From IMG/VR virus record IMGVR_UViG_2585427777_000010: 9,228 nt of DNA, one strand, 5' to 3'. The notes beneath the pieces are model-generated. The model did not search any database, was not told the origin of the DNA, and saw only the letters and a list, made by a program, of their open reading frames with translations. This document shows, in pieces, positions 434 through 6,595 of this stretch (positions are counted from its first letter, which is position 1; each line of letters opens with the position of its first letter). This DNA comes from a virus (taxonomy: Duplodnaviria > Heunggongvirae > Uroviricota > Caudoviricetes). Position numbers and translations under genes: made by a program.

Positions 434-460
434 TGCACAAAAGTGCACAAATTTGCACAA
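434..460. repeat. Three phased direct repeats of TGCACAA at a 10-bp period, each followed by an A/T tract (fourth copy at 526-532)
   Basis: TGCACAA at 434-440, 444-450 and 454-460, with a fourth GTGCACAAAAAAA at 526-532, in a non-coding region. Confidence 0.6.
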
Positions 461-833
461 TTTTTTTGAACGACTTTTTACCCTTCCGGCCCGCATGGCG
501 GCTGGATCCGTCAAGGATCCGTGCGTGCACAAAAAAACGCGCTTTTTCTGCGCGCAGGTGACGGGGGAACAGCCCGCGTTTCAGGGGGTAAATAGCATTC
601 CCTGAACGATGTCGCAGAGATACAACAGAATGGCTGTATTTCTCACGCTGAGCGTGAAAAAGACGTGAGGGCTTTTGATTTGATGGGGTGAAAGGTAAGG
701 CCGTCAAAATCGCACTGAGACGGCGAGAACATGCAGTCAACGCGGTGGGATTGCGTAAGAGTCTGGCTGTCGATGATGGCAATAAGCAGGAAAGCGTCGT
801 GAAATTATCTGATTGATACAGGAGCTGGAGAGT

Positions 834-884: not shown

Positions 885-1931
885 TCAGGATGTGGGCTGG
901 GTGTCCAGCAGTGCATAAGGGTTAAAGCGGATCACCTCTTCGCCAAGCCAGTCATTGATGTGCTTCATGGCCTCCATGACGGGCATCAGCTCGTTAATTG
1001 CGTAAACCCGCGCGGCCTTCTCCACATCACCAAACGCACTTTTTTCGCCCGGCATCGCCCCCATCAGTTGCGGCGGAACGCGGTGCGCAGCCAGCACATC
1101 ATCACGGGATGCCGCCTTAACATTCATGAACTCATCCTTTGCGGTGATCTGCTGGAACGGCAAAATTTGCACCCCCTCTTTGCCCCCGTTGGGCGCATGG
1201 ATGAGCACGTTTTTAAACGCACCACCACCACGCGCACCCTGTAGCGTTTCTTTCAGGGAGTCCATGCTTTCGCGGTTTACCTGCGCTGCACCGATGTAGA
1301 TGATGCACCCGGCGTGGGATCCATTGTCGTAATACAGTTTTCTGAACATGTCCGCCGAATGAGACAGGCTGGCCGAGAGTAATGCGCCAAGATATTCCGG
1401 CATGCCGTAAATTTCCTGGTTAATGTCAGGATTCATCAGGTGGCACACTTTGCCAGGGCGAAACTGAAACGCGTCCTTGCCATCCTGCACATACCACCAT
1501 GATTCAAGATCGCTTCCGCGTCGCATGTATTTCGCCAGGGCGTGCCGTAATTTAAGCGGTTCGCCGAGCATATTGCTTCGAAGCTCAAGGAATGCGTTAC
1601 CGAACACAAACCAGTCCAGCGCCAGCGCCGAGAAATCCTGCCGGGAAAGCAGCGGGTGCGGAATATAGCAGCCGAGCAATACATTGCGCTTAAAGTAAAG
1701 CGCAGACTGATGCCAGGACGTTTGCCGGGCAGCTCTTGCCAGACCGTACCAGTCCACCGGGGTTTCGTACCACCGCCCGTTATCAGCACAGTACATATTG
1801 TCCAGCAGGTCATGCCCGGTCAGGCGATAAGGACCATCAAATGTGAATGCACTGAGCGATGATTCTTTCCTGAGCGCATCAGCGAGATCAATGCGTGAAC
1901 TCATGCGCACTTTTTTATTTTTTCTGCTCAT
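885..1931 (-). CDS. Q: Phage portal (capsid portal) protein, P2 gpQ-like
   Basis: 348-aa ORF in the position and orientation of P2 Q, immediately downstream of and overlapping the terminase ATPase gene. The Q start ATG (1931-1929) shares one nucleotide with the P stop TGA (1933-1931). Confidence 0.88.
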   Translation of the reverse strand: MSRKNKKVRMSSRIDLADALRKESSLSAFTFDGPYRLTGHDLLDNMYCADNGRWYETPVDWYGLARAARQTSWHQSALYFKRNVLLGCYIPHPLLSRQDFSALALDWFVFGNAFLELRSNMLGEPLKLRHALAKYMRRGSDLESWWYVQDGKDAFQFRPGKVCHLMNPDINQEIYGMPEYLGALLSASLSHSADMFRKLYYDNGSHAGCIIYIGAAQVNRESMDSLKETLQGARGGGAFKNVLIHAPNGGKEGVQILPFQQITAKDEFMNVKAASRDDVLAAHRVPPQLMGAMPGEKSAFGDVEKAARVYAINELMPVMEAMKHINDWLGEEVIRFNPYALLDTQPTS

Positions 1932-3682
1932 CAGAACTCCATAACCGTGAAACGCTCGTTTTCTCCTTCGCCGCCAATCGGTTCGTTAATGACAGCAAGC
2001 ATGGTTGCCCACGCAAGGTCGCCGTGGCTGATCCCCCTCGCTCGGTCCGTTTCGTAAGTGATAAAGCCGCCCGGTGTTTTCACCTTACGCACGGCGTTAA
2101 AGGCCGCGACCAGCTCGCGTTCGGCGCGATCGTATTCCCACCGCCCGGCACGCATTATTTGCAGCATTTTCAGTACCAGCGACCGTTTTGATGACAGCGT
2201 GAAGGTGTACGGAATAGCAGCAGGGAAAAACCGTTTCACTATCTGATAAACAGCCTCCCCGTTCCCGCCCGTCACATCAATGCCGATGTGTTCCACGTTG
2301 TAGCGATACGTGAACTCTTCAATGACTCTGGCCTGTTCTTCAAACTCCAGCCCCTGAACGCGTCGCGTCTCCACCGTTCGAAAACGGCCACCAGGAACAG
2401 CCGGAGGAACCACCACGGACACAGCGCCGCTGTCGCCGTTGCCACTGCTGCCGTTTGCGTCATACCCAATCCATACTGGACGATTCCCCATCGGGCGGGG
2501 AGCAAAAGGTTTCCAGTCTTTCCAGTCGTCGTATCCGTCAACACCGCAGCCAATCAGGATATTCAGGTTAAATGCCGATTCCCCTTCGCGGACAAACTCA
2601 CACATATAGAGATTGAGGAACTCGTCTTCGGTGTTTTCATCACGAATTTCGTCGATATCGGTGTGTTTCCAGCCGTGATTGACCACATCTTCCAGCGTGA
2701 CAATTTGCCGCCATGTCCGGTCAGGGCAGATAAGCCCGTTATGCAGCGTTTTCCAGTCCACAGAAAAACGCTGGCGTTTATGCGAGGCCTTTTTCTCGTT
2801 CCAGCGGTCGCCGTTCCAGTAGGCGTATGCCTCGTGCGTTTCGGTGGATGGCGTGGAGAAGTAGGTGCGCCGCAATCCGCTGAGGGTTGCCATAGCGCCA
2901 GCCACCTTGCGCAGTTCAGCAAAGCGACTGACCCAGAAAAATTCATCAAAATAAAAATTGCCCGTATAGGACTGTGCCGACGCAGCAGAAGTGCCGAGAA
3001 AATGCAGCTCTGCGCCGTTGGAGAGGATGATTTTATCGCCCCCTTTCAGCTCCACATCAACTTCAGCCGCGGCCTTCTGAATAATGCTTTTAAACTGGAA
3101 CGCCTGACGACGCGACGCAGACAAAAAAATCTGGTTACGCTGGTAAGGTTGCGCCACATCGTCACGCAGCGCCATCAGCAGTGCTTCCTGTGCAAAATAC
3201 CAGGTCGCCCCAATCTGTCGGGATTTCAGGATCATCCTGTTACGTATCCCGGCTTCCCTGCAAAGAGTCAGGGAGTCAAACCAGCCCCGCTGATGCCACT
3301 CCAGCCTGCTGATGATTTTTTCCCGCAGTGCAGCAATCTGTTCCGGCGTGAAATGATTTTTAAGTTTTTTCGCCCGGCCTTTCTTTCCTGTGGCCGTCGC
3401 ATCTGGCTGGCCATCATGCAGTTTTTTAAGCTGCCGGGTCAGCAGGTCTATTTCCTTGAAGTCACCACCTGTTTTATTCTGTTTTTCAGTAAGCTGGATG
3501 AGGCGCGCATCGATGGACTGCGTGACACGCTGCACGGGTGGCGTTTCATCCCACTGGTCGCGTTTTTTCCACGCATAAATCGTGTTCGGGTTTATTCCCA
3601 TCAGACGTGAGATTTCTGCGGGCGGATAACCCTGCCAGTAAAGTTGCCGCGCACGCTGGCGCACAAAAGCGTCCTGAATCAT
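1931..3682 (-). CDS. P: Terminase large (ATPase) subunit, P2 gpP-like
   Basis: 583-aa ORF of the size expected for P2 gpP (about 590 aa), transcribed divergently from the O-N-M-L cluster as in P2. A G-rich Shine-Dalgarno (GGGGGAG) precedes the ATG at 3682-3680. Confidence 0.9.
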   Translation of the reverse strand: MIQDAFVRQRARQLYWQGYPPAEISRLMGINPNTIYAWKKRDQWDETPPVQRVTQSIDARLIQLTEKQNKTGGDFKEIDLLTRQLKKLHDGQPDATATGKKGRAKKLKNHFTPEQIAALREKIISRLEWHQRGWFDSLTLCREAGIRNRMILKSRQIGATWYFAQEALLMALRDDVAQPYQRNQIFLSASRRQAFQFKSIIQKAAAEVDVELKGGDKIILSNGAELHFLGTSAASAQSYTGNFYFDEFFWVSRFAELRKVAGAMATLSGLRRTYFSTPSTETHEAYAYWNGDRWNEKKASHKRQRFSVDWKTLHNGLICPDRTWRQIVTLEDVVNHGWKHTDIDEIRDENTEDEFLNLYMCEFVREGESAFNLNILIGCGVDGYDDWKDWKPFAPRPMGNRPVWIGYDANGSSGNGDSGAVSVVVPPAVPGGRFRTVETRRVQGLEFEEQARVIEEFTYRYNVEHIGIDVTGGNGEAVYQIVKRFFPAAIPYTFTLSSKRSLVLKMLQIMRAGRWEYDRAERELVAAFNAVRKVKTPGGFITYETDRARGISHGDLAWATMLAVINEPIGGEGENERFTVMEF

Positions 3683-5794: not shown

Positions 5795-6595
5795 ATGATT
5801 ACTCCTGCACAACAACACTGGCAGAACGTGATGGCACAGCGCGCAGGCCGGGCGAATGAAGGTGTGGACCACGCCGCGCGTACCGCGCATGAAGAGGTGC
5901 TGTATCGTCTGCGTCTGGCACAGGCCAGGCTAAAGGGCGTACAGGCCAGAAGCGCGAAAGCCGCCATCAAAAAAGAGTTGTTGCCGGACTTTTCCGGCTG
6001 GATTGAGGGAACGCTGGAGACTGACGGCGGGCAACAGGACGAAGTAATTGCCACGCTGATGGTGTGGGCGATTGACTGCGGCGATCTTCCGCTGGCGCTG
6101 CGTATTGGTGCATATATGGTCCGTCACAACCTCATCATGCCGGATAACTTTGGCCGTACTGCTGCCACGGTACTGACCGAAGAAATCTGCAACCCGGTAC
6201 TGACGCAGGCCGGGACGGATGCCGACGCGGATTTATCCGCCTTTATCGAACCACTGGACACACTTTGGGAAATTGTCGCCAACCAGGACATGCCGGACGA
6301 AGTGCGCGCCAAATTATGCAAGGCGTGTGCCTTTGCCCGTCGTGGCCTGACCGATGCAGACAACATGGCCTCATCACTGAAGCTGCTGCGCGAAGCGATG
6401 CACCTGAACCCGAACGCAGGTGTGAAACGCGAGATTGCAACCCTTTCCCGCGCCCTGAAAAAAGCCGATTCCGCAGCCGCACCAGAAGACGCCAGCGCAC
6501 AGCAGACGCAGGACGAAAGCAGCAAAAGTAAAAAGACAACGCAGAAGCCTGCAACACGAAAAACCACCGCGACGCAGAAGGCAAAGCGCGGTTAA
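5795..6595 (+). CDS. M: Terminase small (endonuclease) subunit, P2 gpM-like
   Basis: 266 aa with an N-terminus (MITPAQQHW...) and internal motif (DMPDEVRAKL) resembling P2 gpM, and a basic low-complexity C-terminal tail. GGAGAG Shine-Dalgarno precedes the ATG. Confidence 0.85.
   Translation: MITPAQQHWQNVMAQRAGRANEGVDHAARTAHEEVLYRLRLAQARLKGVQARSAKAAIKKELLPDFSGWIEGTLETDGGQQDEVIATLMVWAIDCGDLPLALRIGAYMVRHNLIMPDNFGRTAATVLTEEICNPVLTQAGTDADADLSAFIEPLDTLWEIVANQDMPDEVRAKLCKACAFARRGLTDADNMASSLKLLREAMHLNPNAGVKREIATLSRALKKADSAAAPEDASAQQTQDESSKSKKTTQKPATRKTTATQKAKRG

Follow-up and report, generated by a model that had tools for sequence, protein, structure and literature searches.

The four copies of TGCACAA that lie in non-coding DNA beside the portal gene of a P2-family prophage of Escherichia coli probably form an accessory array for recognition by terminase, resembling cosB of phage lambda, at the P2-family cos site of a P88-like prophage; the assignment is drawn from sequence comparison. 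The feature is real and clearly selected, and it is a piece of a known kind of element that has been poorly annotated, not a new system. The whole stretch of DNA analysed, 9,228 nucleotides long, is referred to here as the window. It contains three distal boxes (box 1, 434–440; box 2, 444–450; box 3, 454–460) and one proximal box (526–532), all exact matches on the + strand with start-to-start distances of 10, 10 and 72 bp, and each box is followed by an A/T tract, just as the initial annotation had it. Box 1 forms the left edge of a conserved cos module, box 2 lies 82 bp upstream of the proximal box and box 3, the best conserved of the distal boxes, 72 bp upstream. All four are found on the side of the predicted cosN that faces away from the portal gene, 123, 113, 103 and 31 bp before it. 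The initial annotation had suggested a protein-binding array belonging to a P2-type cos, and the conserved position, register and distance to cosN described in the following paragraphs argue for such an array.

The window comes from a P2-family prophage of E. coli (Peduoviridae, genus Xuanwuvirus, P88-like), as judged from its open reading frames and from annotated relatives. The gene order Q, P, O, N, M, L can be read within it, with divergent Q–P and O–N–M–L operons. The portal protein gene Q (homologue of P2 gpQ; 885–1931) and the large terminase gene P (gpP homologue; 1931–3682), which encodes an N-terminal helix–turn–helix (HTH) and matches Pfam PF06056, Terminase_6N and Terminase_6C, are on the − strand. 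The + strand genes that come after P encode the scaffold, the capsid and the small terminase M (gpM homologue; 5795–6595, Pfam PF05944), with L following. A perfect 11-bp inverted repeat (834–858) lies just past the stop codon of Q, at the place occupied by the annotated terminators tQ of P2 and tW of 186. The order in relatives is gpA, cargo, cos and then Q, and the cos of the window has the same place, between the variable accessory region on the gpA side and the portal gene gpQ. The region 425–900 is present in 1,182 of 5,426 complete E. coli genomes.

The cargo side of the window has features of its own. Positions 1–261 (− strand) are the end of an IS4-family element, similar to IS421/IS186, which sits in the cargo region and outside cos; its terminal inverted repeat is at 239–261 and its transposase starts near 206 on the − strand, and relatives without the IS match the window from 261 onward. 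In these relatives the insertion point precedes the start codon of a DUF4760 cargo gene by 25 bp, and the IS probably splits this gene from its promoter-like site at 381–352 (− strand). In P88-like prophages, moreover, the replication gene gpA is directly followed by ParM and a ParR-like partition gene (at 1235–2513 in our locus L001 and 954–2229 in L002); partition genes are unusual for an integrated P2-like prophage.

The number of heptamers in the window is not in itself significant, with five copies against 2.19 expected and at least five copies in 15 of 200 shuffled sequences. The phased triple is significant, being absent from all 200 shuffles even when three mismatches are allowed. The fifth TGCACAA (5806–5812) stands by itself at the very beginning of gene M and is consistent with chance. 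The region of the boxes was said to be without coding function, and this stands: a coding region is rejected because only mechanical open reading frames overlap it and because 1-nt indels that break the frame are found among close relatives with 95–99% identity. The box region also has no match in Rfam, which excludes a known RNA family.

That the repeats lie close to cos, as had been claimed, is borne out by homology. The predicted cosN is the 19-nt cohesive-end sequence GGTGACGGGGGAACAGCCC at 557–575 (+ strand), which shares 13 of 19 positions with the P2 cohesive end GGCGAGGCGGGGAAAGCAC and has the same context as in P2, P4 and 186, namely a TGCA box followed by an A tract, a short inverted repeat and a G-rich 19-mer. 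It is identical in phage phiT5282H and in many genome loci. The cos of P2-like phages has 19-nt 5' cohesive ends located within a 55-bp conserved core (Ziermann & Calendar 1990, as reported in PMC9594776, PMC3931495 and PMC5694545). Positions 526–584 of the window align with the cores of P2, P4 and 186, and the proximal box aligns with TGCATTAAAA of all three; on this alignment the equivalent of the 55-bp core starts at the proximal box. A minimal cos of about 125 bp, if that is its length, would end near box 3. Taken from box 1 to seven bases past cosN, where the equivalent of the 55-bp core ends, the conserved module is about 150 bp in length.

An A7 tract and an inverted repeat, CGCGC-N7-GCGCG, occupy the DNA between the proximal box and cosN (533–556). 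Read on the − strand (555–537), the repeat would fold into a hairpin with T7 (the A tract in complement) behind it, and so resembles a terminator for leftward transcription. Its counterpart in P2 and P4 is CCGCCC-N8-GGGCGG with 6-bp arms, and the enrichment over shuffled sequences is weak. The TGCAC boxes are found with two different cosN sequences; therefore, the boxes and the cleavage site are separable modules, as are cosB and cosN. Lineages that pair TGCAC boxes with a P2-like cosN resemble the window more closely in every gene, and hence do not separate specificity driven by gpM from specificity driven by gpP.

The layout is kept throughout the family. Relative to cosN, which is predicted in the case of the window, TGCAC is found at −123, −113, −103 and −31 in the window and in Enterobacter phage phiT5282H, and TGCAT is found at −123, −111, −101 and −29 in P2 and at −124, −111, −101 and −29 in P4 and 186. 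In each of the five, the third distal box precedes the proximal one by 72 bp, and three direct boxes 72, 82 and 92 bp upstream of the proximal box recur in P2, 186, P4 and dozens of diverged prophages. P4 has been reported to have only the 55-bp cos core in common with P2 (PMC9594776, PMC9122126), but it nonetheless has three distal TGCAT boxes at the same distance. The alignment of cos regions proposed in the initial annotation thus finds position, register and distance to cosN maintained in syntenic relatives, in distant ones and in P4. A profile constructed from eight cores, with the window among the seeds so that its own score follows by construction, located cos downstream of gpQ in 47 of 80 independent prophage loci; these had been retrieved via gpQ, one genome per species, from hosts ranging from Enterobacteriaceae to Xenorhabdus, Photorhabdus and Collimonas.

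Each lineage repeats its own box. In 50 cos regions, non-redundant at 85% identity or less, the pentamer of the proximal box occurs 1.76 times per 43-bp distal window and 0–0.02 times in four control windows, with positions peaking at −72 (26 of 50), −82 (21 of 50) and −92/−95 (12 and 7). Loci with TGCAC as the proximal pentamer have 53 copies of TGCAC and one of TGCAT in the distal window, those with proximal TGCAT have 31 of TGCAT and four of TGCAC, and those with TGCGT, two Collimonas lineages having it at both sites, show four against none. The box sequence is lineage-specific (TGCAC, TGCAT or TGCGT) and concordant between distal and proximal sites. Several copies of one motif adjoin cosN at a position that is conserved across relatives. 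Among 63 non-redundant regions of the TGCAC type, the information content per column is 0.10 bit in the left flank and climbs to 0.87 in box 1, 1.15 in box 2 and 1.31 in box 3; it is 1.05 in the T7 tract that follows box 3 (461–467, + strand), which is kept in TGCAC-type lineages, and 0.62 in the 47-bp spacer, whose length is preserved while its sequence drifts. Conservation sets in abruptly at box 1, and most matches in E. coli begin at 433/434. The first distal box is degenerate in several lineages, which counts against an array of the cosB kind.

The spacer contains further elements of more restricted distribution. The direct repeat that had been noted between the boxes, GGATCCGT at 504–511 and again at 515–522, has the coordinates given for it; the copies are separated by CAA and form an 11-bp tandem duplication (504–522, + strand) with a GATC in each copy. 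As a correction to the initial annotation, this pair is private to the P88 sub-lineage, other relatives having a single GGATC. The two GATC sites of the window (505–508 and 516–519) are inside this GGATCC duplication. Across lineages Dam sites (GATC) are over-represented immediately before the proximal box, in 22 of 66 lineages at −20 to −1 or, as the interval is also given, −25 to −4, and again at −70 to −51. A GC-rich palindrome in mid-spacer (486–503 in the window) has arms that vary by lineage, such as CGCCAG/CTGGCG, CCGCC/GGCGG and ACCGCGCC/GGCGCGGT; arms of at least 5 bp are present in 36% of lineages and 15% of shuffles, and the palindrome is weak in the window and absent in P2. The linear record of P88_4B11 (NC_049391) starts at the equivalent of position 479, between the distal boxes and the proximal box; the start was apparently set in assembly and does not look like a mapped end.

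Outside the module the picture is one of diversity. Searching IMG/VR for the exact pattern gave 80 loci; in almost all of them the same module is followed by cosN, and gpQ comes about 400–455 bp after box 1. In five of these relatives (loci L115, L122, L126, L165 and L171) some 620 bp of additional DNA intervene between cos and the portal gene, making this a second, small site of insertion on the far side of cos. The sequence to the left of box 1 differs in almost every lineage, and often a terminator of a + strand cargo gene abuts box 1. The defence hotspot of P2 lies between gpA and gpQ, adjacent to cos (Rousset et al. 2022, PMC9122126). As the left flanks are diverse and the module is constant, the array belongs to cos and not to the neighbouring genes. 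Among the IMG/VR pattern matches and the E. coli genomes, every cos-type match with enough flank is followed by gpQ, and no P4-like satellite with a TGCAC-type cos was found.

The DNA at the boxes is predicted to be bent in this lineage. In a wedge model, the strongest predicted bend of the 9.2-kb window is centred at 449 (57.9 degrees per 31 bp, against a median of 14.4), and a second peak of curvature falls at 530–540; the T7 tract and the phased A/T tracts between boxes produce the predicted bend. The intrinsic bending put forward in the initial annotation is a prediction for the lineage of the window and does not extend to P2 or 186, where the predicted A-tract curvature is not conserved. 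A site for IHF between the repeats, comparable with I1 of lambda, was sought and rejected, as no WATCAANNNNTTR with at most one mismatch occurs in 434–580.

Experimental use of the P4 site bears on whether the distal boxes are required. The sequence listed as ‘P4 cos site (packaging signal)’ in Table S6 of PMC9942202, on the P4 + strand, starts at ATGCGTTTTCC, inside box 3, and the fragment appears to be without boxes 1 and 2; the adjoining stretch of P4 that contains those boxes is annotated there as the ‘Tsid terminator’. The plasmid pACK57 (Tridgett et al. 2021) is said to have an identical cos site and to have given 2e9 transducing units per mL (PMC9942202). If only that fragment is inside it, boxes 1 and 2 are not needed for packaging from a multicopy plasmid with a cos-deleted helper. 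The boxes may thus be accessory rather than essential.

Several other explanations would tie the boxes to their variable surroundings. It is very improbable that they have no function of their own and are kept as a homology arm for the recombination that exchanges cargo, or simply by shared descent. They do sit at the boundary of a recombination hotspot (Rousset et al. 2022, PMC9122126), but inside the block neither the gap that follows box 1 nor the 47-bp spacer is as well conserved as they are, a change of motif at the distal sites is matched at the proximal one, and the spacing is held despite drift of the spacer sequence. An operator or iteron for an adjacent accessory gene had been offered in the initial annotation; on a related reading the boxes would be the promoter or operator of leftward-transcribed accessory (defence) genes beside cos. 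The mapped transcript starts of old–tin in P2 (33424 and 33426, − strand) do put the −35 region over box 1 (33452–33456), an overlap that we infer from the coordinates and that is read as a secondary use of the site. This proposal is to be dropped as an account of the array and has only a very slight chance of being right: the boxes persist whatever unrelated cargo lies to their left and in either orientation of the genes, including + strand neighbours with a terminator abutting box 1; the sole promoter-like site in the flank of the window (381–352, − strand) is outside the boxes; and the proximal copy and the boxes of P4 would be left unexplained. Flank diversity and the promoter scan together rule out a cargo-gene operator or promoter. 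The partition genes of P88-like prophages raise the thought of a parC-like centromere for ParM/ParR. Type II centromeres consist of short phased direct repeats, and in relatives ParM and the ParR-like gene are 1.5–2 kb to the left. The array is, however, present at a matching distance from cosN in P2, 186, P4 and phiT5282H, and the stretches examined of these four records have no annotated par genes; a ParMRC centromere is excluded because the array occurs without them in those stretches, and we give the idea practically no credence.

Two other readings assign the distal boxes a different task. They may bind another protein, a nucleoid protein of the host or a phage factor other than terminase, which bends or marks cos or protects or circularises the chromosome end, leaving terminase to read the 55-bp core only. 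This would suit a gpM that has no recognisable DNA-binding fold, distal boxes that may be dispensable in cosmid assays, and the strong predicted bends at both box clusters in this lineage, and the lineage-variable palindrome and enriched GATC of the spacer hint at further factors. We nevertheless regard it as unlikely. The distal boxes share their lineage-specific pentamer with the proximal box, which is inside the core that terminase must use, and a host protein is not expected to switch motif within one host, whereas both TGCAC- and TGCAT-type prophages are found in E. coli; P4, moreover, copies the boxes of its helper, and the region has no IHF consensus. The second reading, to which we assign a small probability, makes the distal array mainly an intrinsic terminator or insulator that halts rightward early or cargo transcripts before cos. 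As TGCA is self-complementary, neighbouring boxes can fold together into a hairpin, and the U run would come from the T tract behind box 3. A terminator scan flags GTGCA-N6-TGCAC plus T7 at 443–468 and the T tract is conserved in TGCAC lineages; boxes 1 and 2 of P4 are the arms of an 8-bp hairpin of −14.0 kcal/mol, the one annotated as Tsid (PMC9942202), and 186 gives −12.1 kcal/mol. Yet the hairpin of the window reaches only −6.1 kcal/mol (z = −0.99, with 33 of 200 shuffles folding as well), and in P2 a weak hairpin (−5.9 kcal/mol, z = −0.4) is not followed by a T run. Termination does not call for three direct copies, for the motif of the proximal box or for a fixed distance of 72 bp to it, and a separate strong terminator already lies directly upstream of box 1 in many relatives and in 186.

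If the boxes are a recognition array for terminase, as we favour, the candidate readers are the HTH of gpP and gpM. The N-terminal HTH of gpP matches PF06056 at residues 6–63 (window 3494–3664), and HTH_23 also scores above its cutoff. Among the 178 loci that have both cos and the N-terminus of gpP, every TGCAC locus has INxNT(I/V)Y(A/S)WKKRD as its putative recognition helix and every TGCAT locus has xKRPTVQSWKQRD; the TGCGT lineages come without gpP sequence. This association between helix and box is consistent with reading by gpP but not decisive, because it amounts to a single phylogenetic split. The AF2 model of gpM is all-alpha, a TPR-like solenoid with a disordered basic tail, and not the usual combination of HTH and oligomerisation ring; no recognisable DNA-binding fold was found in this model and no relative among solved structures. 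The tails of P2 and 186 gpM contain KRGRP, which is similar to an AT-hook. Of the suggestion that the boxes are analogous to the R-sites of a small terminase subunit, the first half, a conserved array at a P2-type cos, is supported; in the second, gpM stands as one of two candidates. A more specific proposal, which we advance only tentatively, is that the reader of cos in Peduoviridae is no canonical small terminase but the HTH domain (PF06056) joined to the large terminase at its N-terminus, with the TPR-like gpM possibly serving as adaptor, and that it acts on a bipartite looped site of three phased distal boxes and one proximal box at a fixed 72 bp, with the type of box defining the packaging-specificity group.

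A mechanism along the following lines can be envisaged for the array. The terminase holoenzyme would read the proximal box, which opens the essential 55-bp core, and this would place the nuclease at cosN, at a distance of 31 bp. The three distal boxes, 72–92 bp upstream, would be occupied by additional protomers or by other DNA-binding domains within that oligomer, with the DNA between the box sites looped or wrapped; the predicted intrinsic bends at both clusters could help in this lineage. The outcome would be higher affinity and specificity and a stable complex on that end of the chromosome, as lambda cosB provides for cosN. The sequence of the box would set lineage-specific types of recognition (TGCAC, TGCAT, TGCGT), with the satellite P4 copying the type of its helper.

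The site is easily placed among known ones. Like the cos of P2, P4 and 186, it lies between the cargo hotspot on the gpA side and gpQ, has a G-rich 19-mer with 13 of 19 positions as in P2, a proximal TGCA box, an A tract and an inverted repeat before cosN, and three distal boxes at similar offsets. It departs from the cos of P2 in having TGCAC instead of TGCAT and a cosN with differences at 6 of 19 positions, from P2 and 186 in having A/T tracts between boxes that give a predicted bend, and from other P2-type cos sites in the lineage-specific GGATCCGT duplication of its spacer. The distal boxes lie outside the 55-bp core. The reference records of P2, 186 and P4 carry no annotation for them, and no description of them was found in the searchable literature, a body that excludes the primary paper of 1990; nor was a statement on the direction of packaging found in that literature.

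The cosB of lambda contains the gpNu1-binding sites R3, R2 and R1 and the IHF site I1, adjoins cosN, and is bound by the winged-helix of gpNu1. The array in the window is similar in having copies of a short motif on one side of cosN over about 100 bp, with predicted bent DNA between them, and in being separable from the nicking site. It is unlike cosB in that its four boxes are all direct repeats, three of them at 10-bp spacing, in that there is no IHF consensus and in its location on the side of cosN away from the terminase genes. The proteins also differ, gpM having a predicted TPR-like structure where the small subunit of lambda is winged-helix and the HTH being carried by the large subunit gpP. 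A looser analogy may be drawn with the small-terminase sites in the cos or pac of HK97 and other phages (PMC11331095, PMC10370121), which are likewise short, defined sites near the cut that govern the specificity of packaging. In the HK97 type, however, the TerS is canonical and ring-forming, whereas here its homologue has a different predicted fold, and the site in the window is bipartite, with three boxes and one separated by 72 bp.

The cos of P2-type phages is usually taken to be the 55-bp core, and the conserved module described here, about 150 bp long, carries a simple, lineage-specific repeat code. Two questions follow: which of the terminase subunits recognises cos in this large family of phages, and does the type of box set the compatibility between helper and satellite in packaging? 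On its right, the P2 defence-gene hotspot ends exactly at the array. The design of P2/P4 cosmid vectors for delivery is affected as well; one group has already remarked that longer cos flanks may contribute to improved transduction (PMC9594776). Were the tentative proposal of a bipartite site read by an HTH true, the types of box would decide which helpers and P4-like satellites can package one another.
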